DNA of 64,000 bases from a bacterium (GCA_030693235.1 JAUYBE010000016.1:35917-99916); one strand, 5' to 3'. Positions 6,657-49,960 are shown, counted from the first letter of the stretch. Notes: a model not told the origin generated them from the sequence alone. Numbers and translations are program-made.

Positions 6657-6658
6657 AT

Positions 6659-7054
6659 TTAAACCTCTTCAAAAAATGTATCAGGATCGTTTAGATTATA
6701 AATTTCGCTAATCCAAATTAAAAGCTTCATTTCTATATCGCCGATGTTTTGAATATTATGCGTCCAATTTAATTTCATTTCAACCAATTCCGGCGCGTTG
6801 CCGGAAACGATTTTTTCTTCAATTTCATTCGTCTCGCGGTTTCTTTGGCGAATTTTCGCTTCGCCTTCAATCACGCAAAAAATCTCTTTCTTTCTTATAT
6901 GATAATGATTCCCTCTGACTACTCCGGGTTTTGTTGTTGAATAAGAAACCTGACCAAACCCAGGTATTTTAAACACTTCAATGAAACTTCCTCTTTCGTC
7001 GCTTTTTATTTCCAATTTTTTATTTTCCATTTTTATATGACAAATCCCACACAT
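6659..7054 (-). CDS. cupin-domain protein resembling the C-terminal domain of CapF/FnlB
   Basis: ERGSFIEVFKIPGFGQVSYSTTKPGVVRGNHYHIRKKEIFCVIEGEAKI is a cupin fold with His ligands. It lies 15 nt downstream of the SDR ORF in the same operon. Confidence 0.55.
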   Translation of the reverse strand: MCGICHIKMENKKLEIKSDERGSFIEVFKIPGFGQVSYSTTKPGVVRGNHYHIRKKEIFCVIEGEAKIRQRNRETNEIEEKIVSGNAPELVEMKLNWTHNIQNIGDIEMKLLIWISEIYNLNDPDTFFEEV

Positions 7055-7069
7055 AATTTGCGATATAAA

Positions 7070-7801
7070 TTATGTATGGGATAAATAAGTTTTGTACAAG
7101 TCTTTATGAAACTTTGATTTTAATTTCGGTTTATTTTTAAAACTTTGCATAAGTTTTGCTAAATTACCGACAGAAATTTCATTTTTTAAATTAACTCTTT
7201 TAAAATAAAAAGGATTTTTTCTATATTTCTTTATCTCTTCTATAATAATTTCTATGACATCGCCGACATAAATAAGATTAATTTTTTTATTTCTGCTTTC
7301 CGGATTTATTGTCAATTCTTTATTATTGGCGATTTGATGACAAAAAGTAGCGACAACGGAATTATAAAACGGTTTACAGCCCTCGCCAAAAACATTGGTT
7401 AATCTGAAAATCGCAACCGGTATTTTAGTCCGCCTAGAAAAATCCTCAAGCATTATTTCCGCCAGCCGTTTACTTTTGCCATAAAGCGTATCTGTTTCCG
7501 CCTGAATTGAAGACAAGAAAATCAGCTTTGCCCGACTCTTGTGTTTTTCCATCGCCGAAATCAAATTATAAGTCCCGACTACGCTTCCGGCGACAACTTC
7601 GATATCGGTTCCCCTGTTAATTGCCGCCGCATGAATTATTACGTTTTTATCTTTAACAAATTCCTTTAACGAATCCTCCTTTAAAATATCACAATCGGGC
7701 ATGTCGCAGCAAAACACCTTTATATTTTTTTTGTTTTTAAAAGTCTCTACTAAATGTTTTCCGATAAATCCGCGACCGCCTGTAATGCCAGTTTTAATCA
7801 T
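7070..7801 (-). CDS. NAD-dependent SDR reductase resembling the N-terminal domain of CapF/FnlB (UDP-2-acetamido-2,6-dideoxy-hexulose reductase)
   Basis: GITGGRGFIGKHL Rossmann motif, YGKSK active-site motif, 243 aa. Confidence 0.6.
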   Translation of the reverse strand: MIKTGITGGRGFIGKHLVETFKNKKNIKVFCCDMPDCDILKEDSLKEFVKDKNVIIHAAAINRGTDIEVVAGSVVGTYNLISAMEKHKSRAKLIFLSSIQAETDTLYGKSKRLAEIMLEDFSRRTKIPVAIFRLTNVFGEGCKPFYNSVVATFCHQIANNKELTINPESRNKKINLIYVGDVIEIIIEEIKKYRKNPFYFKRVNLKNEISVGNLAKLMQSFKNKPKLKSKFHKDLYKTYLSHT

Positions 7802-9682: not shown

Positions 9683-10987
9683 CTATTGCGGTACGATTCT
9701 TACGGAAGCCGAACCTTTAATTATGGTTCCGTTTGTTATTCGACCTACTAAATTTGTTTTGGTACTAGTTGCGGTTAATTGTAGCGCTTGCGTGGATACA
9801 TGGACTGTAAGGTCAATAAATCCATCTCCATTGATGTCACTATAACTTGTCATAGGCTGGCCGTTGTTTTTTAACTTTACTGGTGCATTTGCAACATTGA
9901 TTGTAGTTGCGTCGATTTGCCTGACATCGAATGTCGCGGAACCGAGGATCGCGACAGGTACAACTCCATTAGATTTCAAATTAATACTGTTCGGATAGTT
10001 GCCGGGCTTGATATCTATTGCCACTGGAATAAAAGAACTGATGGTGCCGGTAGCTACTATGGTGATGCCGTAACCCCGACTTGGTATCTGGCTTACTGAA
10101 ATGTTCTGCGCCAAAAGCATGGTCGTGCTCCCTGTTTGGAACGTAAGGCTATAGGTTGCGGTCGGAGAAGCCCCAACTTCAGGAATGGCCGTAAAGATAT
10201 AATCGCCTGTTTTCTGAACTGGCCAATACACTACATCCTCCGGTTTACCATCGGACCCAAGCTCGCTTTCCGAGTAGTACAATTCTCCAGTCACTTCTCG
10301 GAGAAATTCTTCGTCGGTTTGAATTGCGGTCGTTGCAGTAATGGTAAAGCCATCAGGATCTGTAACGACAAGATCAATCGGGGAGCCGGCTTGCAAAGAG
10401 CCGCCGATGGCGGGGCTAAGGGCTACGCGCCGTAGATCTTGGCTTGCGACAAATCCAATTCTTGCCTCAAACTCTACTTTGGTGGTACTACGAATACCCT
10501 GTTGAGGTGAAAACGCCTCTACAATATCAAACGTTACATTATCACCAACATACATCGCAACATGATCTTTTATGCCATTGCTATTTTTATCAAGAAATAA
10601 CAAATCGCCCGGCTGTAAATCATTTTCAGTTATTGCTTCTGAATTATTTTTATATTGCCCATCCGCTCCATCATAACGAATCACATTGCGCAAAAGATTC
10701 CTTTTGGGGTCAAAAGAACGGTTAAATGCCCATTGTACTAATCCAGAACAATCAAGACCCGCTCCAAAATCTATTGTTCTAATCTTATTGTTCCAGAAAT
10801 TATAGCCGTTGAAAATCAAATTTACGGCTACGTATTCTCTCCGTAAAAGATCCCAACCTTTCCCGCCATAAGTATCGCCATCTCCAATATAAGGAGCATT
10901 AATAACAAGTTTCGCTAAATTTGCGGCTTTAGTAGATAAGGGCAACTGTATTTCAAAATCAATATTTCCCGCTGTGCCGAATTCCTG
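9683..10987 (-). CDS. NlpC/P60-family cell-wall peptidase domain plus C-terminal beta-rich domain; no start codon or signal peptide of its own
   Basis: GLDCSGLVQWAF...PGDLLFLD...IKDHVAMYVGDN supplies the Cys and His of the NlpC/P60 catalytic pair. The ORF caller used TTG at 10945. The reading frame is open up to the TAG at 10988-10990 and is the same frame as the upstream LamG ORF. Confidence 0.6.
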   Translation of the reverse strand, partial: QEFGTAGNIDFEIQLPLSTKAANLAKLVINAPYIGDGDTYGGKGWDLLRREYVAVNLIFNGYNFWNNKIRTIDFGAGLDCSGLVQWAFNRSFDPKRNLLRNVIRYDGADGQYKNNSEAITENDLQPGDLLFLDKNSNGIKDHVAMYVGDNVTFDIVEAFSPQQGIRSTTKVEFEARIGFVASQDLRRVALSPAIGGSLQAGSPIDLVVTDPDGFTITATTAIQTDEEFLREVTGELYYSESELGSDGKPEDVVYWPVQKTGDYIFTAIPEVGASPTATYSLTFQTGSTTMLLAQNISVSQIPSRGYGITIVATGTISSFIPVAIDIKPGNYPNSINLKSNGVVPVAILGSATFDVRQIDATTINVANAPVKLKNNGQPMTSYSDINGDGFIDLTVHVSTQALQLTATSTKTNLVGRITNGTIIKGSASVRIVPQ

Positions 10988-12816: not shown

Positions 12817-13707
12817 TTATTGCTTTGATTTATTTTTTGCTTCATAAAGCTTCGCGTCAACCAAAAACCTGTACCAACATCCCTGTAAAAAATGAAATAT
12901 CAAGCCTTCTTTGCCGTCTAAAAACCCCAAACGGAAAAAATAGCGATAAATAAAATATAGAAAAACTCGTAAAAATTTAGGGAATTTATAATAAAAATTT
13001 CTTTTTTTACCGGCGCCGTAATCTTTTCTTAATACGTCTTCCGCTTCGCGGCTGGAATAATTATTATGCTTGGCAATCCAATCCGCTAACGGCTTTTTAT
13101 TATCGTCAATAAAATCATTTTTCAATTTTTCCGCTTTTCCTTCCGATAGAATAATGTGTTCATCCATCGCGCGTTGTTCCGAGCGCGCTTTGCCCTTCTT
13201 AAAAAGCCGCAAAATCCAAGTCGGATAATATCCGCCGTGTTTTATCCAGCGTCCCATAAAATATACGCGGCGTTTCATATAATAGCCGTTAATTTTTTGG
13301 ACATCCGATGTCCTAACATTAACGTCAATATTTGGGACATCTGATGTCCCCATATTGAACAATGTTTCGCCAATTTCTTGTTTAAGTTCTTCTGTCAAAT
13401 ATTCATCCGCGTCCAAGCGTAAAATCCACTCATTTTTAATTTTCAAATTATCCAGCGCCCAATTGAATTGCTGGGCCTGATTCTCAAATTTATGCTGAAC
13501 TACCTTCACAGACCCACGCTGACTGTCCGCGTTGGTCCGCGTTAAGTCCGCGTTAGTCAGCGCTTTGGCGATTTCCAAAGTTTTATCAGTGGAATAAGAA
13601 TCAACAACAAAAATCTCATCCGCCCAATCAGCGATATTTTTCATTAACCGCTCAATATGAATTTCTTCGTTGTAAGTTAAAATTATTATTGAAAGAGGAA
13701 TTTTCAT
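12817..13707 (-). CDS. glycosyltransferase family 2 carrying two in-frame repeat insertions
   Basis: IIILTYNEEIHIERLMKNIADWADEIFVVDSYSTDKT...RLDADEYL (DxD). Repeat family 2 at 13299-13350 encodes TSDVPNIDVNVRTSDVQ. Repeat family 3 at 13521-13563 encodes LTRTNADSQRGSV. Confidence 0.8.
   Translation of the reverse strand: MKIPLSIIILTYNEEIHIERLMKNIADWADEIFVVDSYSTDKTLEIAKALTNADLTRTNADSQRGSVKVVQHKFENQAQQFNWALDNLKIKNEWILRLDADEYLTEELKQEIGETLFNMGTSDVPNIDVNVRTSDVQKINGYYMKRRVYFMGRWIKHGGYYPTWILRLFKKGKARSEQRAMDEHIILSEGKAEKLKNDFIDDNKKPLADWIAKHNNYSSREAEDVLRKDYGAGKKRNFYYKFPKFLRVFLYFIYRYFFRLGFLDGKEGLIFHFLQGCWYRFLVDAKLYEAKNKSKQ
13299..13350. repeat. twin-palindrome element, family 2 (GGACATCCGATGTCC ... GGGACATCTGATGTCCC), in-frame in GT2
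   Basis: Two near-identical 15-17 nt perfect palindromes separated by taacattaacgtcaatattt. A second copy lies at 30949-30999. Confidence 0.7.
13521..13563. repeat. GTCCGCG/GCGGACT-type oligomer repeat, family 3, in-frame in GT2
   Basis: gactgtccgcgttggtccgcgttaagtccgcgttagtcagcgc. Related runs lie at 32521-32622, 33015-33060, 34072-34155, 39381-39462 and 47111-47152. Confidence 0.6.
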
Positions 13708-29365: not shown

Positions 29366-31228
29366 TTAAAATTTATTTAAAACCGCTTTCGCCCAAGAAC
29401 GGGACCAATGGGATTTAGTATTTTGTATTTGGTATTTTGTATCTTGTATCTCGCGAAGCCAGTTTTGAAACGGAAAAGTAAAACCCATTTTTGGACGGGT
29501 GAAAATTTCTTGAGGCAATAAATCGCGAACCGCGGCGACGAGAAGGGGCTTATTTATGTTTTTTAGTTCTTTAGTTTTTAAGTTTTTAAGTTTTAAGTTT
29601 GCGGGCAAACTGCTTAAATATTCAACCAGCGGGTGGTCCAAAAACGGCACCCGGACTTCAACCGAATGACGCATTGACATAAAATCGGTGTCTTTAAGCA
29701 ATTGGTTTTGAAGATAGAATTTAAGTTCAAGATAGGAAAGAAGGCCAATTGGATGTAATTGTTCTAAGTGTTGTAATTGATGCGATAATTTATCTATAAA
29801 ATTATTTACTTCTTGAACATTAGTATCTAAAATCTTCGCGGTTTCTTGAGGAGTGAATAAGCCCCTAATCCCTAAATAAAAACTTAAAATATCGTCATTG
29901 GTAAAATAACTTAATTTAGAATACTTGTCGCCAAATAAACTGCCCAATTTTAGCGGAGATTTTAAAAATTTCGGCAAATTCTGGATTTTTCTTAGTAATT
30001 CCGCCCGGCGAAAATGCGGATAACCCAAAAATATTTCATCCGCTCCTAGTCCGGAAAGAACGGTTTTTAACCCGGCCTGCTTGGCCGCCTTGGCGATAAA
30101 AAAAGTGTTGACGCCGTCTATTGTCGGCTGATCCATCGCTTCAAAAATTTCTTCAAACGAATCGTAAAAATCCTGTTTTGTTATCTTTATTTTGCGATGG
30201 TCGCTGCCTATCTTTTTTGCGACCAAGTCCGAATAATATTCTTCGGAAAATTCTGGTTCGTCGAAAATAATTGATAAAGTTTTAAGACGCTGATTTTTTA
30301 TAGTTTGAGCCGCCAGCGCCGCAATCACCGACGAATCCAATCCGCCGCTTAAAAATACGCCCAAAGGCGCGTCGCTGATAAGATGAAGATTGACGGATTC
30401 TTCTAAAAGACTTCGAATACTATCACGTGTGATAGTATTATCCTGAAAGTTCTGTGTTTTGTTTTTGAAAAATTCTAAAGGCTCATAATATTGAATTAAT
30501 TTTTGACTGCCGTCAGCTTCTCGGACTAAATAATGTCCGGCCGGCACAGCATAAACATTTTTTATCGTAGTTGTCGGTAACGGCACCGAGCCGAAAAGTA
30601 AAAAACCGATATAAGCGTCGGGGTTTTTTTGAACCAGTATTATTCCGCTGTTTTCCAGCGCCTTAACCGTTGAAGCGAAAATTAATTTTTCATTATCCGA
30701 ATAATAATAAAGGGGTTTAATGCCGTATCTGTCTTTAACTAAAAATAATTTTTGATTTTTGCCATCCCAAAGTCCAAAAGCGAACATCCCGCGAAGCATT
30801 TCAAAAGATTTTTCGCCGCATTCGGCGTATAAAGCTAAAATCACCTCGGTATCGGTTTTTGTTTTGAATTTATATCCCTTTTTCTCTAAATCTTTTTTTA
30901 ATTCCAAAAAATTATAGATTTCTCCGCTGTAGGTTATTACTAATGTCTGGACATCCGACGTCCTAAAATTACCGCCAATATTTGGGACGTCGGATGTCCT
31001 TAAAATTGACCCATTTTGCCAAATCATCGGTTGGTGGCCAGACTTTGAAAGGTCGATAATAGAAAGCCGGGAGTGCCCCAGCGCAACACCGTTTTTTACA
31101 TCAACAAAAACGCCTTCGTCGTCTGGACCGCGATTTTTCTGGGAGGTGTTCATTTTCCCCGCTGCCGCTTCCAAATCTTTTTTATTATAAATTTTTTTAT
31201 TTTGATAAATTCCGGCAATGCCGCACAT
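29366..31228 (-). CDS. asnB: asparagine synthase (glutamine-hydrolysing), glycan-locus amidotransferase type, carrying in-frame repeat insertions
   Basis: MCGIAGIY N-terminal nucleophile, SGGLDSS PP-loop, 620 aa. Insertions: family-2 palindrome 30949-30999 (RTSDVPNIGGNFRTSDVQ), and tandem oligomers at 29560-29600 (LKLKNLKTKELKN) and 29425-29455 (IQDTKYQIQNTK). Confidence 0.85.
   Translation of the reverse strand: MCGIAGIYQNKKIYNKKDLEAAAGKMNTSQKNRGPDDEGVFVDVKNGVALGHSRLSIIDLSKSGHQPMIWQNGSILRTSDVPNIGGNFRTSDVQTLVITYSGEIYNFLELKKDLEKKGYKFKTKTDTEVILALYAECGEKSFEMLRGMFAFGLWDGKNQKLFLVKDRYGIKPLYYYSDNEKLIFASTVKALENSGIILVQKNPDAYIGFLLFGSVPLPTTTIKNVYAVPAGHYLVREADGSQKLIQYYEPLEFFKNKTQNFQDNTITRDSIRSLLEESVNLHLISDAPLGVFLSGGLDSSVIAALAAQTIKNQRLKTLSIIFDEPEFSEEYYSDLVAKKIGSDHRKIKITKQDFYDSFEEIFEAMDQPTIDGVNTFFIAKAAKQAGLKTVLSGLGADEIFLGYPHFRRAELLRKIQNLPKFLKSPLKLGSLFGDKYSKLSYFTNDDILSFYLGIRGLFTPQETAKILDTNVQEVNNFIDKLSHQLQHLEQLHPIGLLSYLELKFYLQNQLLKDTDFMSMRHSVEVRVPFLDHPLVEYLSSLPANLKLKNLKTKELKNINKPLLVAAVRDLLPQEIFTRPKMGFTFPFQNWLREIQDTKYQIQNTKSHWSRSWAKAVLNKF
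30949..30999. repeat. twin-palindrome element, family 2, in-frame in asnB
   Basis: ggacatccgacgtcc taaaattaccgccaatattt gggacgtcggatgtcc. Same architecture as 13299-13350. Confidence 0.7.
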
Positions 31229-31246: not shown

Positions 31247-31507
31247 TTACTTATACAAATTACTATGCGTATCAATGGCAATGAATATGATTATATCAAA
31301 AGATATTCGCTTATAGATTGACCTAAGATCGCCGGCGATATTGACGCTCCGATAGCCCAAGTATTTTCCCCTAAGCGGGTGATTATTTAAAACCGGATTG
31401 AATTCGTCCTGAATAAATAGAGCTAATCGCTCTTTTACTTTCTCTTTCTCGTTAGTTTTAAGTTTTTTATACTGCTTTTCAAAATTTCTATGAAATCTTA
31501 TTTTCAT
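31247..31507 (-). CDS. type II toxin, RelE/ParE superfamily (YoeB-like pattern)
   Basis: 86 aa. FHRNFEKQYKKL...HPLRGKYLGYRSVNIAGDLRSIYKRISFDIIIFIAIDTHSNLY. Overlaps the upstream small ORF by 4 nt. Confidence 0.6.
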   Translation of the reverse strand: MKIRFHRNFEKQYKKLKTNEKEKVKERLALFIQDEFNPVLNNHPLRGKYLGYRSVNIAGDLRSIYKRISFDIIIFIAIDTHSNLYK

Positions 31508-31782
31508 AACGAGCCAAGATATTCTCTCATTTCTTCCGCCGACTTAAAAACGGGTGATAAATTTTTCTTATTTTTTATGTCCTTTTCCGCAATGCCTAAA
31601 AATTTTTCAAATTCAGGGATTATTTGCGGAATATCGGAAAAACGCACCTCGCGGGTTCTGATAAAATTTCTTAAAGAGGCGTTTATCACATCACTCAAAG
31701 AAATACCAATCTCCTCGGCAATCTTTTGAACATTCTCTTTTACTTCCTTATTGGTTTTTACGCTTATTACTACTTTAGCCAT
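31504..31782 (-). CDS. RelB/DinJ-family antitoxin (RHH)
   Basis: MAKVVISVKTNKEVKENVQKIAEEIGISLSDVINASLRNFI is a RelB/DinJ-type N-terminal ribbon-helix-helix. The tracked ORF extends to 31818, but MAKVV at 31782 is the likelier start. Confidence 0.5.
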   Translation of the reverse strand: MAKVVISVKTNKEVKENVQKIAEEIGISLSDVINASLRNFIRTREVRFSDIPQIIPEFEKFLGIAEKDIKNKKNLSPVFKSAEEMREYLGSL

Positions 31783-31827
31783 ATATCTAAAGTATATACA
31801 ACAGTAATCTGTTGTCAACTATTTTTT

Positions 31828-32394
31828 TTACTGATTTAATATCGCTTTCACCCTCTCATCTTCCGGCCAGTATTTAAGAATTTTTTCGCCGATTTTCCGC
31901 GTGTTTTCCTCGTCGCCTCTTAAACGGTATAGATCAAATAAATTATAAAGAACCGGCGGGAGTTTCGGACCATAAATCAAGGCCTCGCGATAATATTCTT
32001 CTGATTTTAGAAAATCGTTTTCATTACCTGATTTCTCCCATAAAAAGAAATATATCTGAGCCAAAATAAGGAGATGCCTTGTTTCATCTTTTCTCATTTT
32101 TGGCTCTAAATATTCAACTAAATAACGCGAGGCAATTTCTGGATTTTTAGGATTAGCCACCGCATTGACTAAATTATTTCCCAAAAACCTTGCCGCCTCG
32201 TAATCGCCAATCGGCGAATAAAAACCGAAAAGCTTGTCAAAAACTTTCTTAAAGTCTTCCGGGGTTTTCAGAGACGGCATTTGGTAAGCTGATTTTATAT
32301 AAAGTTGAGCCTTTTTAAAAGGCAAAATAGAACCAAAATAGATTGCGAATAAAACAATGACAATGACTATGACAATGATAATTTTTTTAATCAT
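31828..32394 (-). CDS. hypothetical membrane-anchored helical-repeat protein
   Basis: N-terminal TM (IIIVIVIVIVLFAIYFG), then helical TPR-like repeats. Confidence 0.35.
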   Translation of the reverse strand: MIKKIIIVIVIVIVLFAIYFGSILPFKKAQLYIKSAYQMPSLKTPEDFKKVFDKLFGFYSPIGDYEAARFLGNNLVNAVANPKNPEIASRYLVEYLEPKMRKDETRHLLILAQIYFFLWEKSGNENDFLKSEEYYREALIYGPKLPPVLYNLFDLYRLRGDEENTRKIGEKILKYWPEDERVKAILNQ

Positions 32395-34322
32395 ATACGA
32401 ATATCTGCTCTTAATTTATAGGTCGCAAATGCCAAAAACAGAAACAAATTAATATAAAGCGGCAAAATTTCAAATAAAACAATGCCTTGAATAAGATAAG
32501 CAACGGGCAAAGCGAATATTAACGCGGACTCAAGCGGACTTAAAAAAACGGACTTGGCGGACTTGGGCGTTAACGCGGACTGATGCTGACCTAAAACGGA
32601 CTTAGCGGACGAGGCGGACTGAGATAATAGACCCGGGGCATAAATTATTCTTTCTATTTGAACGTCATTTTTTTGACCAAAATTAACTAATAAAGCCAAT
32701 TGATAAGGCAATCCCCTTAAATAGTGCCAAATCTGTTTCTTTTCGTTTCTCCCTAAAAAGGGAAGTGATTTTAATTCTAAAATAATTTTATTCTCAATAA
32801 TAAAATCAGGTTTATAAACACCAACCTTTTTGTTGTTATACATAACATCAAGAGGTTTTTCTCTTTCAAAAATAATACCTCTTTTATTAAATTCTTCTTC
32901 CAAAGCATTCTGATAAATAAACTCTTTATGTCCTAGACCGAGTTGTTTCTTAACATCAAAGATCGCCCCTCTTATTTTATAAGTTATATCCTCGTATAAT
33001 AATTTGGAATTATTGTCCGCCATAGTCCGTGTTTTATCAAAGTCCGCTAAAGTCCGCGTCTTGAAAAGAAGTTGCCAATAAAACACTCCGAAAATGCTCA
33101 AAAAACTTAATAATCCAAGAATGCCGGTTTCGGCCAAATAGTCAAAATAAACGCTGTGCGCTCGGTCAAACCAGGCGCCAAAACCAGATGAAGGAACAAA
33201 ATATTCCGTGTTAAAATGCCGGTCAAAAACTTGTAAGAAATTCTCCGGGCCCCAGCCCAAAAGCGGTCGTTCTTTCCAGCCGTCAATGGCAATTTCCCAC
33301 ATAATTGTCCGGTGCTGAAAAGTTTCTGCCGAAAAAGAAATGTCAAAAAGTCGCGAACCGGGAATAGATTTCACAAAAGGAGTGTCTTTAAAATAAACCA
33401 TTGCGCCAACTCCTAAAATTAAAATAATTGTTAAAGCCAAAAGATGTTTCCGCCATTTCTTTTGTTGATAAACAAAATAAAAGACACCGCCAATAATCGC
33501 GGCAATTAAACCAAGAAAAGCGCCGCGGGTTGCCGCCAACCAGAAGAAGATAAAGAAAAAAATTATCAGGCCGATAAGTAACATAAATTTCTTATCCGTA
33601 TTAATCCGCGTCAATAAAAGATAACCAGCATAAAACAAAGCAAAAATTAAATAGGTGGCAGTATAAGCCGGGTTGCCTAAGGAGCCGGCAAAACGGAAAT
33701 GAGGGTCTTTAAGGGATCCGCCGATAAAACCCTTAAAGGTTTGAAAATAGGGTCCTCCTCGGCCGGTTATTTCTCTAATCTCAAAACCACTTTCTGTCCG
33801 GACGCTCATTTCCGCGTCAATATATTTTAAATGGGCGCCGATTCCGTAAAAAATTACCAAAACCGCGGCTAAAATTGAAATCCAAAATAGTTTTTTCCAA
33901 TCTTTTTCTTCCCGAAACAAAATTACCAGAAGCAAAAAGAAAATCCCAAGATAAAGTATCTGTAAACCGCCTTCCCCTCTTTCAAAATTGGACCAAAAGG
34001 ACATTGCCGGGTCAACGCCGAAAAAACAAGCAAGAAGAAATATCATGACAAAAGCGAAGACCGCCCAAACCAGCGCAGACTTACGCAGACTTAACGCAGG
34101 CTCACACAGAAAATTCCGCGTAGTTCCGCGTGTTTGTCCGCGTAGTTCCGCGTTTTGGAAAAGCAGTCCCAACAGAAAAAATATTAATGCCAAACTCACA
34201 CTTGTTCTAAAAAAAACATATTTACCGACGATAAAAGGAAAAAGCGTAGAAGTAGAAACAATAACAACGCTAAATGGAACAAGATAAAGAAAAAATTTGG
34301 AAAGTTTGAAGTAATTTATCAT
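32391..34322 (-). CDS. O-antigen ligase-like polytopic membrane protein with an internal GxxExxY module and in-frame family-3 repeat insertions
   Basis: About 12 TM helices and a Wzy_C/O-antigen-ligase-like core (aa ~60-420). Aa ~445-545 FDVKKQLGLGHKEFIYQNALEEEFNKRGIIFEREKPLDVMYNNKKVGVYKPDFIIENKIILELKS is the GxxExxY protein-family signature. Repeat-encoded peptides lie at aa ~56-83, ~421-436 and ~567-600. A C-terminal TM helix follows. Confidence 0.55.
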   Translation of the reverse strand: MINYFKLSKFFLYLVPFSVVIVSTSTLFPFIVGKYVFFRTSVSLALIFFLLGLLFQNAELRGQTRGTTRNFLCEPALSLRKSALVWAVFAFVMIFLLACFFGVDPAMSFWSNFERGEGGLQILYLGIFFLLLVILFREEKDWKKLFWISILAAVLVIFYGIGAHLKYIDAEMSVRTESGFEIREITGRGGPYFQTFKGFIGGSLKDPHFRFAGSLGNPAYTATYLIFALFYAGYLLLTRINTDKKFMLLIGLIIFFFIFFWLAATRGAFLGLIAAIIGGVFYFVYQQKKWRKHLLALTIILILGVGAMVYFKDTPFVKSIPGSRLFDISFSAETFQHRTIMWEIAIDGWKERPLLGWGPENFLQVFDRHFNTEYFVPSSGFGAWFDRAHSVYFDYLAETGILGLLSFLSIFGVFYWQLLFKTRTLADFDKTRTMADNNSKLLYEDITYKIRGAIFDVKKQLGLGHKEFIYQNALEEEFNKRGIIFEREKPLDVMYNNKKVGVYKPDFIIENKIILELKSLPFLGRNEKKQIWHYLRGLPYQLALLVNFGQKNDVQIERIIYAPGLLSQSASSAKSVLGQHQSALTPKSAKSVFLSPLESALIFALPVAYLIQGIVLFEILPLYINLFLFLAFATYKLRADIRI

Positions 34323-34356
34323 AACGCTGATTTATAAAGTTTAATAGTTTAATAGT

Positions 34357-34827
34357 TTAATAGTTTAAAGACGGGTGGTCTTTTGGCAAAGCAGAGCGGA
34401 TTAATTCTTTTATTTCTTTTTGTTTTTCGTCTACCGGTTTTTTAAATTTTAAACCTTTATACTTTGAAACTTTTAAGCCGCCTATGAACTTGAAAATTAA
34501 AGCCGAGACGTATTTTGCCAATTCAACCCCGTCTTTTAATTCTTGAGCGCTGATATAGCCTTGATCAAACGCCACATAAAGTTGGGCGCGGACTTCGCCG
34601 CAGGACGCTTTGGCTATATAGAGAAAATAAAGAATTTCTTCCTTACCTCCTCGCTCAAAACCCTCGGCGATATTTGACATTACCGAGACAGCGGCGCGGC
34701 GGATTTGGTCGATTAAGCCGAAGTCGCGGCTGAATTCCAACTTTCGCGTATAACTATAAATCAATTTAACTAATTCGCGAGATTTTTGCCAGACGAACAA
34801 ATCTTCGAAAGATTTTGCGCTGCTCAT
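34357..34827 (-). CDS. four-helix-bundle protein (23S rRNA intervening-sequence protein family)
   Basis: DLFVWQKSRELV, SNIAEGFERG, KASCGEVRAQLYVA. Flanked on both sides by AAAGTTTAA-type tandem repeats. Confidence 0.75.
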   Translation of the reverse strand: MSSAKSFEDLFVWQKSRELVKLIYSYTRKLEFSRDFGLIDQIRRAAVSVMSNIAEGFERGGKEEILYFLYIAKASCGEVRAQLYVAFDQGYISAQELKDGVELAKYVSALIFKFIGGLKVSKYKGLKFKKPVDEKQKEIKELIRSALPKDHPSLNY

Positions 34828-34829
34828 AC

Positions 34830-34975
34830 GCTAAAAGTATAAAAGTTTAAAAGTTTAAAGGCAATACTTATACTTAAAGTTTAAAAGCAGAATCTAAAAG
34901 CTAAAAGTTTAAAGGTTTAAGGGCAAGTTTAAAAGTATAAAAACAATAGAAAATTTAAAAGTTTAAAAGCAAACC
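34830..34975. repeat. AT-rich tandem repeat (AAAGTTTAAA-like units)
   Basis: aaagtataaaagtttaaaagtttaaaggcaa...aaagtttaaaagc. A shorter array lies at 34330-34365 (agtttaat x3). Confidence 0.6.
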
Positions 34976-35005
34976 AAAAACCGCCCGTCGGCGGTTTTTG
35001 GTTTG
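34972..35005 (-). terminator. rho-independent terminator (bidirectional hairpin) downstream of the surface-protein gene
   Basis: aaaaaccgcc-cgtc-ggcggttttt with T-runs on both strands. Confidence 0.6.
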
Positions 35006-35112
35006 TCCGATTATTTGCTATCGGGAAACTTCGGTTCATTCTTATCTTAATCTTACTTGCGTTTCCTTGCAAAACATCAAGATTAATTAATAACCTTGAA
35101 TGGTAATGTTGC

Positions 35113-37005
35113 TTATTTAGCAATATAAGCTTGTACGCCTACAGCTGTTGGAAGAGCATATAAGTAGTCAACAACACCTGTTGTACCATTTGGATTTGCT
35201 GTCAACCGAATTCCACTTAATTTGGCATTGTTATAACCATCAGCTGCTGCTACTGTGATTTTGTAACTAACAGTAAATGTATTTGTTGATCCATTTATGA
35301 TCTTAAATACACCGTCTGTATTAACAGAATCAGTAGATGTTATGTCTAGCTGAGTAAATGAATAAACGGTAGATGTTGGTGTTCCATCTAATACTCCTTG
35401 AGCTAACAAAATACCCTGTGCTGCTCCTGCAGCAGCAGTAATGTATTCATTTCGTCCATTAGCTTTTACGCTAAACGAAAGAGTTCCTGTCATTTGCTGA
35501 GGAGTTGCACTACTAATTATGTTTGCAACTAGTGGAGTGCTTGCACTAACGAAAGCAACAGTCGGAGCATATTCGTAGAAGTACATCTTTTCACCTGTAA
35601 CTGGAGCTGGTGTAGCCACAGCTGTGAATGAAGGACCAGTTGTAGCAGTAATTGTAGAAATAGCTGCAGTAATTGCGTCACCATTAACTACAAAACTTTC
35701 AGCAAGATGATTCATCTTTGCATATACTGACAATGTTTTTGTTACATCTTTTGCTAAATCGATATTTAGAAGAGGGAAGGTAAATGTTCCAGCTCCTGTT
35801 ACAGAAGCTAGAATATTTGCACCATCACGAAGCTCAAATGAAGCAACAGCCCCTGAAACAGTAGTGCTAGCACCAACTCTTGCAGCAGTACCAGCTATAG
35901 CTGTAATATTAACTGCTCCAACTTTTGCTTTAAGATCAAAGTCCATCAACTTAACATCAGTCAAAGTTCCAGCAATAGTGTTAAGACCAGAAACTGCTTG
36001 TGTTTTTGGAGAAGATAAACTTAAAGAATTTTCTAATGTACCTGCTGCAGTAACAGCTGTACTTGAAAGATTTATAATACGAGCTGTCATCTTGTAGACA
36101 TCTGAGATACCTGCACCATCAGTTGCTCTTACTGTACTTGTATTAAGTACATTAGTTGAAACACTAGCAGAAGTAAGTTCTGGACGAGTAACATTCAATG
36201 TCAAAATCTTTGTTGTTCCAACTGGAACTACTACATTAAGACCATTGAATTGAAGTTGATACGCAGAACCTGCTGTAACCTCAGTAACGGTTGAAGCTGA
36301 AAGAGGAATAGTTGCAAGAACTGTTGAGCCATCTGACAAAGTAATATTACTTGCAGACAACCATATACGACTGTCGATATCTAACCACATACGAGTAACT
36401 TTCATATCAGAACCTGTAGCCTTGAGCTTTATAGCCATAACATCTTTACTCTCACCTTTTAGAACAGATAAGTTGTCTGAAGGAAGAGCGTCGTAAGTTA
36501 CGGCGAGTGAACCTTCAACTCCGGGAACTACTGGGGTTGCCGGGGTTGCTGGGGTTGCTGGGGTTGCTGGGGTTGCTGCCAAACTGGCAACATACGCCCG
36601 AGATTTTGGACCAAAATATCCGACTGCCGGAGAAACTCCGACTGCCGCTTGATATTTAGCCAAAGCCGCCTTGGTTAATGAACCGAAGGTGGTTGTTTCA
36701 TTGCCCGCGGAACCGGCTCCAGTAGCAGCCACAGCATAACCTTTTGAATTCAAGAATTGCTGTAACGCTTTAACATCGTCTCCTTTTGAACCAAGAGTGA
36801 GGTCTTTAGTAAAGGTATACGATGGAACGACTGGGGCTGTGGTTAATTGCGCTTGCAACAACTGAATCTGAGCCAATAAGGCGTTAATTTGCGCCTGAAT
36901 GTCAGTTTGAGCTGAAGCTGGCAAAACCATAGTGACGCCAGACAATGAAATCGCGACGGCCAATGAAAGACCAATCGTTGAAAACTTTTTAATTGTATTA
37001 CCCAT
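35113..37005 (-). CDS. secreted cell-surface protein with peptidoglycan-binding domain (PG_binding_1) and long Thr/Ala/Ser-rich beta-rich region
   Basis: Signal peptide, coiled-coil (IQAQINALLAQIQLLQAQL), DDVKALQQFLNSKGY...FGSLTKAALAKYQAAVGV, (PAT)4 linker, about 470 aa of low-complexity beta-rich sequence. Codon composition differs visibly from its neighbours. Confidence 0.55.
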   Translation of the reverse strand: MGNTIKKFSTIGLSLAVAISLSGVTMVLPASAQTDIQAQINALLAQIQLLQAQLTTAPVVPSYTFTKDLTLGSKGDDVKALQQFLNSKGYAVAATGAGSAGNETTTFGSLTKAALAKYQAAVGVSPAVGYFGPKSRAYVASLAATPATPATPATPATPVVPGVEGSLAVTYDALPSDNLSVLKGESKDVMAIKLKATGSDMKVTRMWLDIDSRIWLSASNITLSDGSTVLATIPLSASTVTEVTAGSAYQLQFNGLNVVVPVGTTKILTLNVTRPELTSASVSTNVLNTSTVRATDGAGISDVYKMTARIINLSSTAVTAAGTLENSLSLSSPKTQAVSGLNTIAGTLTDVKLMDFDLKAKVGAVNITAIAGTAARVGASTTVSGAVASFELRDGANILASVTGAGTFTFPLLNIDLAKDVTKTLSVYAKMNHLAESFVVNGDAITAAISTITATTGPSFTAVATPAPVTGEKMYFYEYAPTVAFVSASTPLVANIISSATPQQMTGTLSFSVKANGRNEYITAAAGAAQGILLAQGVLDGTPTSTVYSFTQLDITSTDSVNTDGVFKIINGSTNTFTVSYKITVAAADGYNNAKLSGIRLTANPNGTTGVVDYLYALPTAVGVQAYIAK

Positions 37006-37332: not shown

Positions 37333-38160
37333 TTACGGCGACCATTTTGACGCTCCGAAGATAATCATTGCCAGAATCAAAAACATCGTGATGTTTCTTA
37401 AAACTATCCGGCGGTTGATGGTGCCGCTTAAATGATGAACGATAAAATCCTCCAAAATCAGCGCGATGAGCAGCATCAAAGAAGCGGCGTTAAAAGAACG
37501 GAACGGCAAAAAACCAATAACCCAAAGGAATTGAAGAGACAAAAAAGCCGAACCGCTGGCCATTAGATTTACTTTTTGATTTCCGAGCGGAGCTGAGATT
37601 GCTTCGGCTCCGCCTCGCAATGACATAAATAAAAATTCTTTAAAAAGAAAGAAGGTCGCCGAAAATGCCGCCGAAGATTTAACCAGAAACCAAAACGGCT
37701 GCTCAAAATTATTAAAACTGAAAAAATAAACAAAAACCGTTAAAAGCAAAAGACTGTTTAAAAGATAATATAATGGTTCACGCCGGATAAAAATCAAATC
37801 CTTGATTCCCAGGAGAAGGAAGAAGAGGAAGGAGAAGAAAATAACAATGACTATTGACCATTGACTATTAACTATTGACAAATTAACGGCTAATAAAGAA
37901 GCGGCGAGAAGCGTTAAAAAAGAGACGAGAAATTGGCGGGTGTTGAAAAAAGAACGGAAATAGAAATAAAAGGAGACAGTCAAGAACACGATGACTATTG
38001 ACCATTGACTATTGACAAGATAAAGAAGAACGGAAAAAACCGTTGCCTTAAGCGCCAATATTAAGAGTAAGCCCTTGGGGGTCTCTAAAACCGATTTTAA
38101 TTTTTTTAACATTTTTAAACTCGCCTTTAATGATTTTATCTGCCAATTGGTCAAGAACAA
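37333..38160 (-). CDS. hypothetical polytopic membrane protein with internal duplication and family-1 half-element
   Basis: [10 protein letters not shown] occurs twice (DNA 37850-37880 and 37990-38030). [10 protein letters not shown] is encoded by half-palindrome 37596-37624. The annotated start overlaps the clpB 3' end, so the start is uncertain. Confidence 0.35.
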
Positions 38161-40762
38161 GTTTTTGAATCAGTCGTTTGACCGGTCGAGCGCCGTATTC
38201 CGGGTCAAAACCGGCCTCAGCCAAATGCTTTTTCAAAGAATTTTCAAAAACCTGCTTAATGTTTTTCTTAGCCAATCTTTCTTTCACCTGCTCCAATTGA
38301 ATCTCCACGATTTTTTCCATTTCTTTCGCCGTTAAAGAATTAAAAATTATAATCTCGTCCAAGCGATTTAAAAATTCCGGCCGGAAAGTTTCTTTAAGTT
38401 CTGACATTACTTTCTCATGAAAAATTTTAGCCTTGTCGCTCGCGCCTTCTTTTTCTTTATCTGTCGGCGATTCGAATCCAATCCGGGAAATTTCTTTAAA
38501 ATATTCACCGCCGACATTGGAAGTCAGAATAATAACGGCGTTTTTAAAATTAACCAGTTTCCCCTTGCCGTCTGTTAAGCGACCGTTATCCAAAATCTGA
38601 AGCAGGATATTAAAAACTTCCGGATGAGCTTTTTCAATTTCATCAAAAAGAATTAAGCTGTAGGGCCTGTGCCGGACAACTTCGGTTAATTGGCCGCCCT
38701 CTTCGTGACCGACATAGCCTGGCGGCGAACCGATTAGCCGGCTGGTTGAATGCCTTTCCATATACTCGCTCATATCAATGCGAACCAGAGCTTTTTCATC
38801 GTTGAACATAAATTCCGCCAAAGCCCGAGCCAGTTCGGTTTTTCCCACGCCGGTCGGCCCCAAAAACATAAAAGAACCGAGGGGTTTGTCTTCTTCGGAT
38901 AACCCGGCGCGGCCTCGGCGCAACGCGTTGGCAACGGCTTTAATCGCCTCTTCTTGCCCAACCACTCGTTCGCTGAGCACTTCTTCTATTTTAGAAAATT
39001 TTTCCATTTCCGATTCAAGCATTTTTGAAACCGGAATGCCGGTCCATCGGGAAATCACCTCGGCAATATCTTCTTCATAAACCGCTTCTTTGATGAACCG
39101 TTCATCTAACTTTTGACTTTTGACTTTTGACTTTTGACTTTCTCCTGTGTATTTTTTTTCAAACGCCTTAAGCTCTCTTTCGGCCTGCGGCAATTCGCCG
39201 TAAACAATTCTCGCCACCCGTTCCAAACTTCCTTCGCGTTCGGCCATCTCGGCTTGATGGCGCAAGTCCTCAATTTTTTTTCGCAGATTATGAAGATGCT
39301 CAAAAGAAATTTTTTCCGCGTGCCACTTGGCGGAAAGTTCGTCGTTCTCTTCTTTTAATTTCGCCAGTTCTTTTTCAATCGCGGACTTACGCTGACTAAA
39401 CGCAGACTCACGCGGACTTTTTCTGCGTAGTTCCGCATCTTGTTCCGCGTAGTTCTGCGTCTCCGAAAGCAGAGCCTGGCGTTCAATTTCCAAACGGGTG
39501 ATTTCCCGACGTAATTTATCAATTTCCATGGGCAGACTTTCTGTTTCCAATCGCCTGGCCGCCGCGGCTTCGTCAATTAAATCAACCGCTTTGTCCGGCA
39601 AAAAACGGTTGCTGATATAGCGGGCCGAAAGATTAACCGCCGCGATTATCGCTTCATCGCTGATTCTGATGCCGTGATGCATTTCATATTTTTCTTTCAA
39701 GCCGCGCAAAATCGCGATTGAATCTTCAATTGAAGGTTCGTCAACCATAATCGGCGCGAACCGGCGTTCCAAAGCCGCGTCTTTTTCAATATAGCGCTGA
39801 TATTCTCTAATAGTGGTGGCGCCGATTGCCCTAAGTTCGCCGCGCGCCAAAGCCGGCTTCAATAAATTGGAAGCGTCAACCGCGCCTTCGGCGGCGCCGG
39901 CGCCGACAATCATATGAATCTCGTCAATAAAAAGAATATATTTGCCGGCGGCCTGCTGAATTTCTTTTATAAAAGCTTTTAATCGGTCTTCAAATTCGCC
40001 GCGGAATTTGGTGCCGGCAATCAAAGAACCCAAGTCAAGCATAATGATTTCCCGATTTTTCAAAGGCTCGGGAACGTCGCCGGAAATAATTCTTTGCGCC
40101 AAACCTTCAACAACGGCTGTTTTGCCGACGCCGGACTCTCCGATTAAAACCGGATTATTTTTGGTTCGGCGGGACAACACCTGAATCAACCGGCGAAGTT
40201 CTTCATTGCGGCCGATTACCGGGTCAAGTTTTCCGGCTCTCGCCTGTTCGGTTAAATTAACGGCGTATTTTTCCAGAACTTGAAATTTTGATTCCGGCAT
40301 TTCATCGGTAATCCGCATTGAACCTCTAAGACCGGCTAAAATTCTTAAAGCTATTTCCCTGCGCAAGCCGAATTCTTCAAGCAAACGGCTTACTTGCGAA
40401 TCAGATTCCAAAATCGCCAAAAGCAAGTGCTCGCAAGAAATGAATTCGTCTTTTTGATTGGTCGCGATTTTCGCCGCCTTGTCCAGCGCCTTCATTAATT
40501 CCTGGGAAAGATAAAGTTGGGCAAGTCCGCCGCCGCCGACAATTTTCGGCCCCTTTTTTAAAATTTCTTCAACGCGCCGGTTTAACGCTTCCAAATTAAC
40601 GCCGGCCTTGAGAAGAAGCGGCCGCACCAAAGAGCTTTCGTCAATTATCAAAGCCGCCAAAAGATGAACAATTTTAAATTCGCCGTGATTTTCTTTGGCC
40701 GCGATTTCCTGGGCGTTTTGCAACGCCTCCTGAGCTTTAATTGTAAAACGATGAAAATTCAT
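38048..40762 (-). CDS. clpB: ClpB disaggregase (AAA+ chaperone, two NBDs) with repeat-encoded insertions in the M-domain region
   Basis: N-domain, GESGVGKT and GPTGVGKT Walker A motifs, 904 aa. Aa ~433-460 ([20 protein letters not shown]) is encoded by family-3 repeat 39381-39462. Aa ~541-551 ([11 protein letters not shown]) is encoded by the (ttttgac)4 array at 39108-39140. Confidence 0.9.
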
Positions 40763-46859: not shown

Positions 46860-47645
46860 CTAATCTTTATTTTTGAAGCCGTCAAGAATTCTTTTTAATT
46901 CTTCGGGCAGTTCGGCCGCTATTTTTATTCGTCTACCCGGGGAAATATTAAATTCCAAAGATTCGGCGTGAAGAAACTGGCGCTTTAAGCCGAATGAATT
47001 TTCTTTCGGTCCGTAAAGCGAATCACCGACAATCGGATAACCGATTGAAGCTAAATGAACTCTAATTTGATGGGTCCGACCGGTTTTTGGCATTACTTTC
47101 AGCAAGCTGAAAGTCGCTGACTGACGCGGACTTAACGCCGACAAACGCGGAATTTCAATATATTTAATGACTCTATATTCTGTAATCGCCTCTTTTTCCA
47201 GCCTGCCCTTCCAAACGGTTCTTTTGATAGCGCCTGATTTAATACTGATTGGTTTTTTAATAACGCCGGTTTTCGGTTCAAGTTTTCCCCAAACCAAAGC
47301 CAGATAAGTTTTTTTTATTTGACTGCCTTGTCTCCCTTCGGGAGATCTCCCGTAGGGAGAAAAAAGATTTTTTAAATATTCAAAATATTTCTGATTGCGC
47401 GCGACCAACAATACGCCGGAGGTATCTTTATCTAAACGATGAACAATGCCCGGCCGAGTTTGAGGTTCATCGCCGACATTTTTAACTTCGGGATATTTTT
47501 CCGATAGCCAATCAACTAAGGTAAAATCAGGTTTTAGGTTTTGGGTTTTAGGTTTTAGATTAATTGAGTGGACCAAGATGCCGGCCGGCTTATAAACCGC
47601 CAAGAAATTTTTGTCTTTGTAAATGACGCGGATTTGATTTTGCAT
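46860..47645 (-). CDS. RluA-family 23S rRNA/tRNA pseudouridine synthase with repeat-encoded insertions
   Basis: HRLDKDTSGVLLVARN catalytic-Asp motif. NLKPKTQNLKP is encoded by heptamer array 47520-47560. LSALSPRQSATFS is encoded by family-3 repeat 47111-47152. Confidence 0.8.
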   Translation of the reverse strand: MQNQIRVIYKDKNFLAVYKPAGILVHSINLKPKTQNLKPDFTLVDWLSEKYPEVKNVGDEPQTRPGIVHRLDKDTSGVLLVARNQKYFEYLKNLFSPYGRSPEGRQGSQIKKTYLALVWGKLEPKTGVIKKPISIKSGAIKRTVWKGRLEKEAITEYRVIKYIEIPRLSALSPRQSATFSLLKVMPKTGRTHQIRVHLASIGYPIVGDSLYGPKENSFGLKRQFLHAESLEFNISPGRRIKIAAELPEELKRILDGFKNKD

Positions 47646-49891: not shown

Positions 49892-49960
49892 GTTTTTAGG
49901 TTTTAGTTTTTAGGTTTTAGTAAATTTCTAACACCTAACACCTAACACCTAACACCTAAA
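49892..49960. repeat. heptamer-array element, family 4, filling the entire parA-parB spacer
   Basis: (tttttagg/ttttag)x4 - taaatttc - (taacacc)x4. The two halves can pair as an imperfect hairpin, with GUUUUAG against CUAACAC. Confidence 0.6.

Follow-up and report, generated by a model that had tools for sequence, protein, structure and literature searches.

The intervening sequences (IVS) of bacterial ribosomal RNA (rRNA) genes are bordered by inverted repeats, can bear an open reading frame (ORF), are regarded as selfish and are cut out by RNase III (PMC4990558). The ORF-bearing IVS of 23S and 16S rRNA genes, found in Coxiella, Leptospira and the candidate phyla radiation (CPR), bear a PF05635 'S23p' four-helix-bundle ORF, and their distribution is sporadic and horizontally acquired (PMC4990558; PMC11270868). 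In an actinophage DNA methylase the 'ShiLan domain' was described as an in-frame, non-splicing homing insertion that hides an HNH endonuclease (PMC11855218). Here we describe an element with features of both in a 64,000-nucleotide stretch of bacterial DNA (GCA_030693235.1, JAUYBE010000016.1:35917-99916; 'the window' refers to this whole stretch), namely a GxxExxY-family nuclease ORF bordered by inverted repeat arrays and nested in frame in a 643-amino-acid (aa) O-antigen-ligase-like membrane protein. We consider it probable that the segment 33059-32526 is a selfish, IVS-like nuclease cassette that is tolerated as a translated in-frame loop insertion.

The first-pass annotation of the window had described, at 32391..34322 on the minus strand, a 643-aa ORF in which a complete GxxExxY domain is set in frame in an O-antigen-ligase/Wzy_C-like protein and followed by a final transmembrane helix, and this description held. 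The ORF is present as given and polytopic, with about 10-12 hydrophobic segments by hydropathy analysis, and a Pfam scan placed Wzy_C (PF04932) at aa 253-408 (8e-19; 68.3 bits against a gathering score of 31.7). The module sits in frame between the last two hydrophobic segments of the host, the last of which (aa ~597-635) comes after it and includes a stretch, ALxFALPxAYLxQGxVLF, that was found in all aligned orthologues, with L601, P606, Y609, Q612 and G613 invariant. The NCBI product name for the entire 643-aa protein is 'GxxExxY protein'. All sequences compared in this work come from metagenome assemblies. The parts of the locus, with the kind of evidence for each, are as follows.

32391..34322, minus strand: host ORF, a Wzy_C/O-antigen-ligase-like polytopic membrane protein with the nested cassette (Pfam, NCBIfam; orthologues of 440-530 aa in Patescibacteria/CPR).
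33060..34322, minus strand: host N-terminal part, aa 1-421, with Wzy_C at aa 253-408 and the conserved FYWQLL segment just 5' of the cassette (Pfam, alignment, hydrophobic segments).
33059-32526, minus strand: cassette, 534 bp, consisting of the arms and the stop-free nuclease ORF.
33015..33059, minus strand: left (5') inverted-repeat arm ACGCGGACTTTAGCGGACTTTGATAAAACACGGACTATGGCGGAC, translated TRTLADFDKTRTMAD (same end in contigs L002 and L001; variant in the LepA-nested copies on L006/L070).
32646..32990, minus strand: GxxExxY/PDDEXK_3 nuclease module, aa 445-559 (full-length hidden Markov model matches, AlphaFold2 (AF2) model, catalytic residues).
32570..32622, minus strand: the right arm's second, internal copy, a tandem unit of ~51 nt, within the translated SQSASSAKSVLGQHQSAL (repeat families; absent from the L002 element copy).
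32522..32562, minus strand: right (3') inverted-repeat arm ...GTCCGCCAAGTCCGTTTTTTTAAGTCCGCTTGAGTCCGCGT with the terminal 18-mer AGTCCGCTTGAGTCCGCG (SPLESA), the 18-mer being common to L002 and the LepA-nested copies on L006/L070.
32391..32525, minus strand: host C-terminal part, A600-I643 and stop, with the conserved hydrophobic ALxFALPxAYLxQGxVLF (orthologue alignment).
Cassette ends 33059 and 32526, minus strand: junction-spanning peptides predicted from the 643-aa ORF by translation, LLFKTRTLADFDK and SVFLSPLESALIFALPVAYLIQ.

The nuclease module matched PF13366 (PDDEXK_3) over profile positions 2-117 of 117 in the Pfam scan (1e-31; 110 bits against a cut-off of 22) and TIGR04256 'GxxExxY' over positions 1-116 of 116 in NCBIfam (109 bits against a cut-off of 35). 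The AF2 model (predicted local distance difference test, pLDDT, 92.8) has a predicted PD-(D/E)XK, restriction-endonuclease-like fold, as had been expected for this family. The catalytic residues are present as the E of GHKEFIY, the D of KPDF and the E-x-K of LELK, and E, D, E and K were conserved in 31-33 of 33 nested modules and in 59-65 of 65 free-standing ones. Between the window and L002 the module differs by 14 synonymous and 7 non-synonymous codons of 121, and it appears to be maintained under purifying selection. This module is the only ORF of the window cassette, and no recognised transposase (DDE, HUH, serine or tyrosine) was found in the Pfam scan. The nuclease ORF has no stop codon of its own, and since an ATG is missing at the start of the module in two of the three Wzy-nested copies, the domain would most simply be made as part of the host polypeptide. 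T7 endonuclease I, a marginal PDB sequence match (E 0.28), was not used as evidence.

The module was earlier said to be flanked on both sides by AGTCCGC/GCGGACT runs, and this was borne out, with the refinement that the runs are inverted. The window has 15 copies of GCGGACT, with 3.85 expected; none of 100 shuffles reached 15, and 7 of the copies fall in the two flanks of the module. On the coding strand the 5' flank (33059-33015) has two exact GCGGACT units together with ACGGACT and GCGGACA variants, and the 3' flank (32620-32522) has five exact AGTCCGC units and eight copies of the GTCCG core. The flanks are mutually inverted: when the arm 33059-33015 is aligned with the arm 32522-32562, 38 of 45 positions agree, and the downstream flank is made of two tandem arm copies, the second at 32570-32622. 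The arms are an imperfect terminal inverted repeat (TIR), in the form of TIR-like inverted arrays. They translate as hydrophilic stretches, TRTLADFDKTRTMADNN and SQSASSAKSV...SPLES, on either side of the module; both of the repeat-derived peptides first quoted had been read correctly.

The 5' terminus ACGCGGACT(N2)AGCGGACTTT is common to the window, L002 and L001, and the 3' terminus AGTCCGCTTGAGTCCGCG is shared by the window and L002 and takes a variant form in L001. A LepA-nested module on L006 and L070, about 61% identical to that of the window, ends in the same 3' 18-mer AGTCCGCTTGAGTCCGCG and has a variant 5' array. L001 also bears a second, more distant GxxExxY module, nested in a family 4 glycosyltransferase (GT4) and flanked by CCGAAT/ATTCGG arrays; both repeat-unit types occur on this one contig. 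Over 30 nested elements the repeat unit tracks module relatedness, CGC[G/A/T]GAC-type units going with the main group and (AT)CCGAA-type units with a second. Because the same termini are found in Wzy and LepA hosts and the repeat unit follows the module, the ends belong to the element. When metagenome contigs were scanned for exact matches to the conserved 3' end AGTCCGYTNGAGTCCGCG, 120 loci came back, and almost all of these were either fortuitous matches in contigs rich in GC or copies of an unrelated tandem repeat, TTTGAGTCCG, downstream of an apparent tRNA 3' end; the only informative loci were L070 (LepA-nested), L062 (no ORF) and L073 (same contig as L002).

Comparison with orthologues spoke for the mobile nuclease-like cassette with repeat ends that had been suggested from the window sequence, and against an ancient fusion. 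Among the 120 best orthologues (Patescibacteria/CPR, 440-530 aa), PF13366 was found in the window protein, in P0002 (667 aa) and in the fragment P0013, and the other 117 have PF04932 and no module. In the alignment the insert lies in a hypervariable linker between FYWQLL and ALxFALPxAYLxQGxVLF. In a tree built from host columns only, the three carriers fall in three different clades, each beside insert-free orthologues, the closest being P0003 for the window protein (host identity 72%), P0017 for P0002 (92%) and P0054 for P0013 (77%). The modules of the window and P0013 (L002) are 93% identical in protein, compared with 66% for the host parts, and in DNA the element keeps 87-100% identity, with the host down to 40-65% further away; over the ~100 nt upstream of the element DNA identity is also raised, to 90-92%, where the window and L001 have 72-75%. 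Since only 3 of 120 orthologues carry the module, their closest relatives are insert-free and the module is more alike than the host, the cassette spreads horizontally. The pattern is that of a homing element, sporadic at one conserved site among orthologues and more alike than its hosts, and the three carriers, identical in architecture and site, come from independent assemblies of different samples. Contig L004 is syntenic with L001 (host proteins 92% identical) and has a 27-aa AT-rich repeat linker where L001 has the cassette; to judge from this pair, the cassette replaces the hypervariable linker instead of splitting intact sequence, a refinement of the insertion first envisaged. Longer Wzy orthologues (546-685 aa) were considered as further carriers, and proved to be downstream-gene fusions (P0084, P0089 and P0105) or N-terminal extensions (P0052 and P0069, 546 aa).

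The same arrangement recurs in unrelated genes. A module-similarity scan with one genome per GTDB species returned 80 loci, and the closest matches (55-76% identity), picked on module similarity alone, were in 22 of 22 cases nested in long ORFs open on both sides. In RecG the insertion site lies between helicase motif II (DEQHRFGVxQR) and motif III (PHxLxMTATPIPRTL), in LepA just before the DTPGH motif (G3), and further hosts among these 22 are a class-I aminoacyl-tRNA synthetase (aaRS) and RtcB; RecJ (C-terminal) and pilin-like fusions were seen among more distant matches. Across 60 nt of 5' flank and 90 nt of 3' flank, 29 nested elements had no stop in the host frame, against 33 and 38 stops in the other two frames of the 5' flanks and 59 and 52 in those of the 3' flanks. 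Searched exhaustively with HMMER, 1.84 billion cluster representatives yielded 8,297 GxxExxY relatives at E<=1e-3. Of the 30 best matches 29 are embedded in proteins of more than 200 aa, a length also exceeded by 92 of the 148 newly fetched among the best 150; the partner domains of these best matches belong to 43 Pfam families, including GTP_EFTU, Glycos_transf_1, RecG domains, Transketolase_C, GatB and RtcB. Related cassettes are nested the same way in core proteins of many CPR bacteria, a widespread condition and no one-off. In neighbour-joining (NJ) trees on short alignments the modules do not group by host gene, monophyly of RecG or LepA modules being recovered in 0 of 100 bootstraps, while one aaRS-nested and one LepA-nested module were sisters in 81 of 100 replicates and a second nested group was recovered in 75 of 100. 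The LepA gene with nested GxxExxY on L006 (5001-7238) and L070 (reverse strand, 5536-7779) is the same but for 1 of 2244 bases, which gives TAA in L006 and TCA in L070 at the 3' junction; LepA is split in L006 and an intact 745-aa ORF in L070, and the difference may be a population polymorphism or an error.

The window module, nested in 643 aa, departs from the usual free-standing form of ~120-150 aa, and its more distant relatives are free-standing. It had been proposed that free-standing GxxExxY genes with the same kind of repeat ends might be found, and such genes do exist, across phyla. We counted the 6-mers that the upstream 100 nt and the downstream 120 nt of each gene have in common in inverted orientation, with 200 mononucleotide shuffles, and used direct-orientation counts and ORFs of 100-250 aa from the same loci as internal controls. 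Free-standing GxxExxY genes had a median of 18 inverted 6-mers (4.5 in direct orientation), 37 of 50 exceeding all 200 shuffles; nested modules had a median of 10, with 14 of 32 exceeding all shuffles, and the control ORFs (n=126) a median of 5. Short-unit inverted arrays surround GxxExxY genes in Flavobacteriaceae, Kiritimatiellota-like bacteria, Falkowbacteria and Magasanikbacteria, for example CACGGATTT/AAATCCGTG, and the free-standing relative P0135 on contig L207 has (A/C)GC(A/G)GA arrays. At this last locus (L207, 2990-3450) translation of the 5' array yields the C-terminal tail of the upstream ORF, and the 3' array forms, in another frame, the hydrophobic N-terminus FCVVLLAICAHLLLPAS of the downstream ORF, which looks like a signal peptide derived from repeat units.

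Immediately upstream of the Wzy ORF lies a gene (34357-34827, minus strand) for a PF05635/TIGR02436 four-helix-bundle (4HB) '23S rRNA IVS protein'. Its flanks, 34338-34368 and 34832-34932, are AT-rich short-unit arrays, with AGTTTAAT x4 and TAAAAG/CTTTTAAAC units. On L001, L002 and L004 a 4HB gene stands on the other side of the Wzy gene, also with short-unit array flanks (inverted in L001), and it is absent from the related contigs L003 and L005. The PF05635 gene looks like a second, nuclease-less type of cassette.

The locus invites comparison with rRNA IVS; the PF05635 gene with its repeat-array flanks directly adjoins the window ORF. Like IVS, the cassette is a small ORF within terminal inverted repeats able to form a long stem, and would likewise be sporadic, horizontal and selfish. 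IVS lie in rRNA, are excised by RNase III and have four-helix-bundle cargo and a simple stem, whereas the window cassette lies in a protein-coding ORF, must be translated, has PD-(D/E)XK cargo and has arms that are arrays of a 7-10 nt unit; PDDEXK_3 is not among the rRNA-insert ORF families tabulated for CPR (PMC11270868). With the ShiLan domain the cassette shares an intein-like presence and absence, the lack of intein and intron features, and the proposed combination of surface-loop tolerance with homing by the encoded endonuclease (PMC11855218). The ShiLan endonuclease is an HNH enzyme in a frame other than that of its host, whereas the cassette nuclease is PD-(D/E)XK, in the host frame and part of the host protein; unlike ShiLan, the cassettes have inverted repeat arrays at their ends and occur in chromosomal housekeeping CPR hosts of many families. 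Inteins with a homing endonuclease are also in-frame nuclease insertions by conserved housekeeping motifs (here RecG II/III and LepA G3), sporadic and spread horizontally at the same site. Unlike inteins, the cassettes have no Hint domain and no conserved junction nucleophile or His-Asn, their nuclease is neither LAGLIDADG nor HNH, and they carry DNA-level inverted repeats.

In the literature searched, neither inverted arrays around GxxExxY cassettes nor a nesting of such cassettes in RecG, LepA or Wzy-like genes was found described, and GxxExxY is barely mentioned, in passing, with PF13366 listed under the function 'Unknown'. We place the finding among selfish in-frame insertion elements and IVS-like cassettes, with a substantial chance that it is a distinct, widespread class of its own. 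We put forward more tentatively, at rather less than even strength, the wider view that GxxExxY proteins may be the mobility nucleases of an unrecognised cassette class with inverted cognate-repeat arrays, that ORF-bearing rRNA IVS-type elements may be the known cousins of this class, and that some CPR lineages of the class may have specialised inside protein-coding genes as translated non-splicing insertions.

For the window we propose that the stop-free GxxExxY nuclease ORF, enclosed by inverted GCGGACT-type arrays, would form a mobile cassette that takes up the hypervariable linker separating the Wzy_C-like protein's last two hydrophobic segments. The ribosome would read through the cassette, the arrays becoming hydrophilic linkers around an independently folding nuclease domain, with no RNA or protein splicing involved, and the cassette would persist because it is in frame and stop-free. 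Frame conservation suggests that the insert is apparently translated with its host. Spread would be horizontal: homing-like gene conversion would carry the cassette to the same site in orthologous genes, and now and then it would reach permissive loops of other genes. The encoded nuclease might itself drive this mobility, by cutting at or near the arrays or empty sites so that repair copies the cassette; this part of the proposal is conceivable, and we lean slightly away from it. Proteins of the Wzy_C/WaaL type usually have their large conserved loop, which precedes the penultimate helix, in the periplasm, and by analogy the linker carrying the cassette would face the cytoplasm.

Several observations weigh against the selfish-cassette interpretation. 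For no GxxExxY protein is a cleavage activity, a target site or a transposition intermediate known, and the literature is nearly silent on the family. When the filled L001 site was compared with the empty L004 site no target-site duplication was found and the entire linker was replaced, so that a simple cut-and-paste or homing event is not demonstrated. The ~100 nt of raised DNA identity between the window and L002, upstream of the element, could be a co-conversion tract; the raised identity overlaps the most conserved part of the gene, a stretch that is generally conserved. Since PF05635 cassettes are similarly repeat-flanked with no nuclease, the nuclease may not be required in cis. Support within the module tree is weak, and the single clade of all nested modules that appears in the NJ tree has a bootstrap of 1-3 of 100 and is not claimed. 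Finally, the data are metagenome assemblies throughout, and translation through the insert is deduced from frame only.

The arrays themselves deserve separate attention, since a third repeat run, near the N-terminus of the Wzy-like protein, had been grouped with those of the module. The run is real; it is not part of the cassette, being a separate hairpin array with no ORF:

34072..34155, minus strand: separate inverted array without an ORF, in frame in the first loop of the Wzy-like protein, with four ACGCGGAAC-type units followed by three GTCTGCG units (RNA fold).

This hairpin folds as RNA at -43.5 kcal/mol (z -4.77), and other array-derived peptides occupy the same first loop in orthologues; it is an independent element, a MITE-like (miniature inverted-repeat transposable element) relative of the cassette ends. 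In ClpB (38048-40762) an ORF-less inverted array of four ACGCrGAAC units and then four AGTCyGCG units lies in frame at ~39377-39460 on the minus strand, folding at -38.6 kcal/mol (z -4.1) sense and -33.2 antisense. Arrays of ACGCGGAC / GTCCGCGT type are in frame, on the minus strand, at ~13505-13562 in a family 2 glycosyltransferase (GT2) ORF (12817-13707) and at ~47105-47150 in a pseudouridine synthase ORF (46860-47645). The sense and antisense folds, in kcal/mol, were -43.5/-31.9 for 34065-34165, -38.6/-33.2 for 39370-39470 and -29.8/-24.6 for 13490-13570; these three hairpins are more stable on the mRNA-sense strand because of G.U pairs, and since all these genes lie on one strand, effects of transcription and replication on the asymmetry are inseparable. 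More generally, arrays of 6-11 nt units with many different sequences abound in the window, L001 and L004, often as inverted pairs, both intergenic and in frame in protein loops (for example 49894-49959, 37850-38016 and 39109-39141 in the window, and 2328-2497, 9877-9995 and 10167-10232 in L001). Insert-free orthologues also bear ORF-less arrays at the linker used by the cassette, a CGGAT/ATCCG hairpin in L005 and ACGCGGA units in L003.

The palindromic elements of Rickettsia are short inverted-repeat elements inserted in ORFs and translated as an extra peptide. Coxiella MITEs are short inverted-repeat elements too (PMC5896051). Palindromic and MITE insertions resemble the ORF-less arrays at 34072-34155 and in ClpB, GT2 and pseudouridine synthase in being in frame and translated, and they have no ORF, whereas the window cassette encodes a complete nuclease domain; the likeness is one of architecture only. 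RAYTs, the tyrosine transposases associated with repetitive extragenic palindromes (REPs), are relatives of HUH/Y1 transposases that act on extragenic hairpins. REP/REPIN-RAYT systems (PMC3733652) resemble the cassettes in having one enzyme gene flanked by inverted cognate short repeats, dispersed ORF-less pairs and a repeat type that tracks enzyme relatedness. The cassettes differ in their PD-(D/E)XK nuclease, in their short-unit arrays and in the many copies that are intragenic and translated.

Such arrays raise the question of whether the repeats, and not the nuclease, are the primary mobile or recombinogenic entity, spreading by slippage, hairpin-mediated events or homologous recombination, with the GxxExxY ORF a swapped-in passenger that has another role, for example in defence or addiction. 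Dispersed ORF-less arrays acting as landing pads for recombinational exchange are a serious alternative. ORF-less arrays of many unit types do litter these contigs, including in-frame CGCGGA-type arrays in ClpB, GT2 and pseudouridine synthase of the window and arrays at exactly the linker of the cassette in the insert-free L005 and L003; the four-helix-bundle cassettes have a like architecture and no nuclease, and the filled site resembles a linker replacement with no target duplication. A passenger would be free to decay, however, and the catalytic residues are kept in nested copies; the repeat unit tracks module relatedness even within one contig, and inverted arrays are enriched around GxxExxY genes relative to other ORFs of the same loci. 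We therefore regard an origin from the arrays first as rather unlikely, and note that it overlaps with the selfish-cassette interpretation instead of excluding it.

A second possibility is that the mature protein lacks the insert, which would be removed after transcription, by pairing of the arms, RNase III-like processing and ligation, for instance by RtcB, or by an unrecognised form of protein splicing. The whole element does fold as RNA with both arms paired (-159.6 kcal/mol, z -5.1), its architecture equals that of RNase III-processed rRNA IVS (PMC4990558), each of the three ORF-less hairpins has a more stable fold on the sense strand than on the antisense strand, and the LepA-nested copy on L006 has TAA at its 3' junction. 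Splicing, on the other hand, would impose no constraint on the reading frame, and the 22 closest genome matches and other nested copies keep the host frame open where the other frames are stop-rich; that the frame stays open through the insert argues against RNase III-type excision, and the stop in L006 is due to a single base by which it differs from L070, where the 745-aa ORF is intact. The sense-strand asymmetry of the ORF-less hairpins was not found in the long-range arms of ORF-bearing cassettes, in which G.U pairs showed no excess over A.C (75 against 60 in free-standing and 17 against 29 in nested copies), and for want of such sense-strand wobble an RNA-stem reading of these arms was dropped. 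Arm complementarity is weaker in nested than in free-standing copies. Arm mismatches are mostly transversions and, in the arms of the window, lie between conserved GCGGAC cores, and from their type and placement the arms look like binding-site arrays, a DNA-level TIR and not a selected RNA stem. The absence of intein splicing motifs remarked on in the first-pass annotation was upheld: the Pfam scan of the window ORF gave no Hint or intein family, and more than 25 nested copies showed no conserved Cys/Ser/Thr at the N-junction and no His-Asn with Cys/Ser/Thr at the C-junction, the junction residues varying (...SVIV|PHFL, ...SAFM|PHLL, ...ESA|YILN). Rfam found no intron or other RNA family in 31800-35200, apart from one chance-level miRNA match at E<=1. 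Removal of the insert is, on this evidence, very improbable.

Equally improbable, in our view, is an exapted functional fusion in which the nuclease domain aids the activity or regulation of the Wzy-like protein. The domain is intact, in frame and apparently under purifying selection, and there are DNA enzymes among the hosts (RecG, RecJ) for which a nuclease is plausibly useful. Yet 117 of 120 orthologues work with no module, including one that is 92% identical, and no common function links the hosts (LepA, aaRS, RtcB, GatB, transketolase, glycosyltransferases and a membrane ligase-like protein), with a cassette that brings its own repeat ends and moves between lineages. An assembly or gene-calling artefact, either a chimeric contig or read-through of two adjacent genes, might be suspected from the exclusively metagenomic data and the bare NCBI name of the protein, and can practically be dismissed, as architecture and site recur in three independent assemblies of different samples, the conserved C-terminal host segment continues in frame after the insert and aligns with all orthologues, and dozens of independent nested cases occur in other genes.

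Downstream of the Wzy ORF, a 188-aa gene (31828-32394, minus strand) overlaps its stop by 4 nt and had no match in Pfam and NCBIfam scans. In the orthologues P0084, P0089 and P0105 (667-685 aa) the Wzy-like protein is fused to this downstream gene, which suggests that the two proteins work together. Between the 188-aa gene and asparagine synthase the window has two small overlapping ORFs of 86 and 104 aa (31247-31818, minus strand), and no such pair was called between the 194-aa gene and asparagine synthase on the syntenic contigs L001 and L004. The two may be similar to toxin-antitoxin pairs of RelE/ParE type. Within the asparagine synthase ORF (29366-31228) there is, in frame in its glutamine amidotransferase domain, a palindrome with a perfect 15-bp stem, GGACATCCGACGTCC ... 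GGACGTCGGATGTCC (30949-30999, minus strand), translated RTSDVPNIGGNFRTSDV and folding as RNA at -32.2 kcal/mol (z -5.75), which belongs to a repeat family other than the GCGGACT type.

If the selfish-cassette interpretation is true, the niche of inteins would be filled with no splicing chemistry, in hosts that include RecG, LepA, tRNA synthetases, RtcB, GatB and envelope enzymes, where the reported precedent for a non-splicing nuclease insertion is essentially one, the phage methylase. It would account for odd 'fusion' annotations, such as a 643-aa membrane protein named 'GxxExxY protein', and for the unusual peptides encoded by repeats (TRT/AD..., ...KSA/SPR...) that are frequent in CPR proteins. 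The cassettes would mark natural permissive insertion sites in RecG, LepA, aaRS and RtcB, and suggest a possible source of sequence-specific or structure-specific small nucleases. The abundant GxxExxY family (TIGR04256/PF13366) would gain a concrete role, which by association may extend to the four-helix-bundle '23S rRNA IVS protein' family, and selfish nuclease cassettes would be seen to colonise essential protein-coding genes with neither intron nor intein machinery, by way of translatability and permissive loops.

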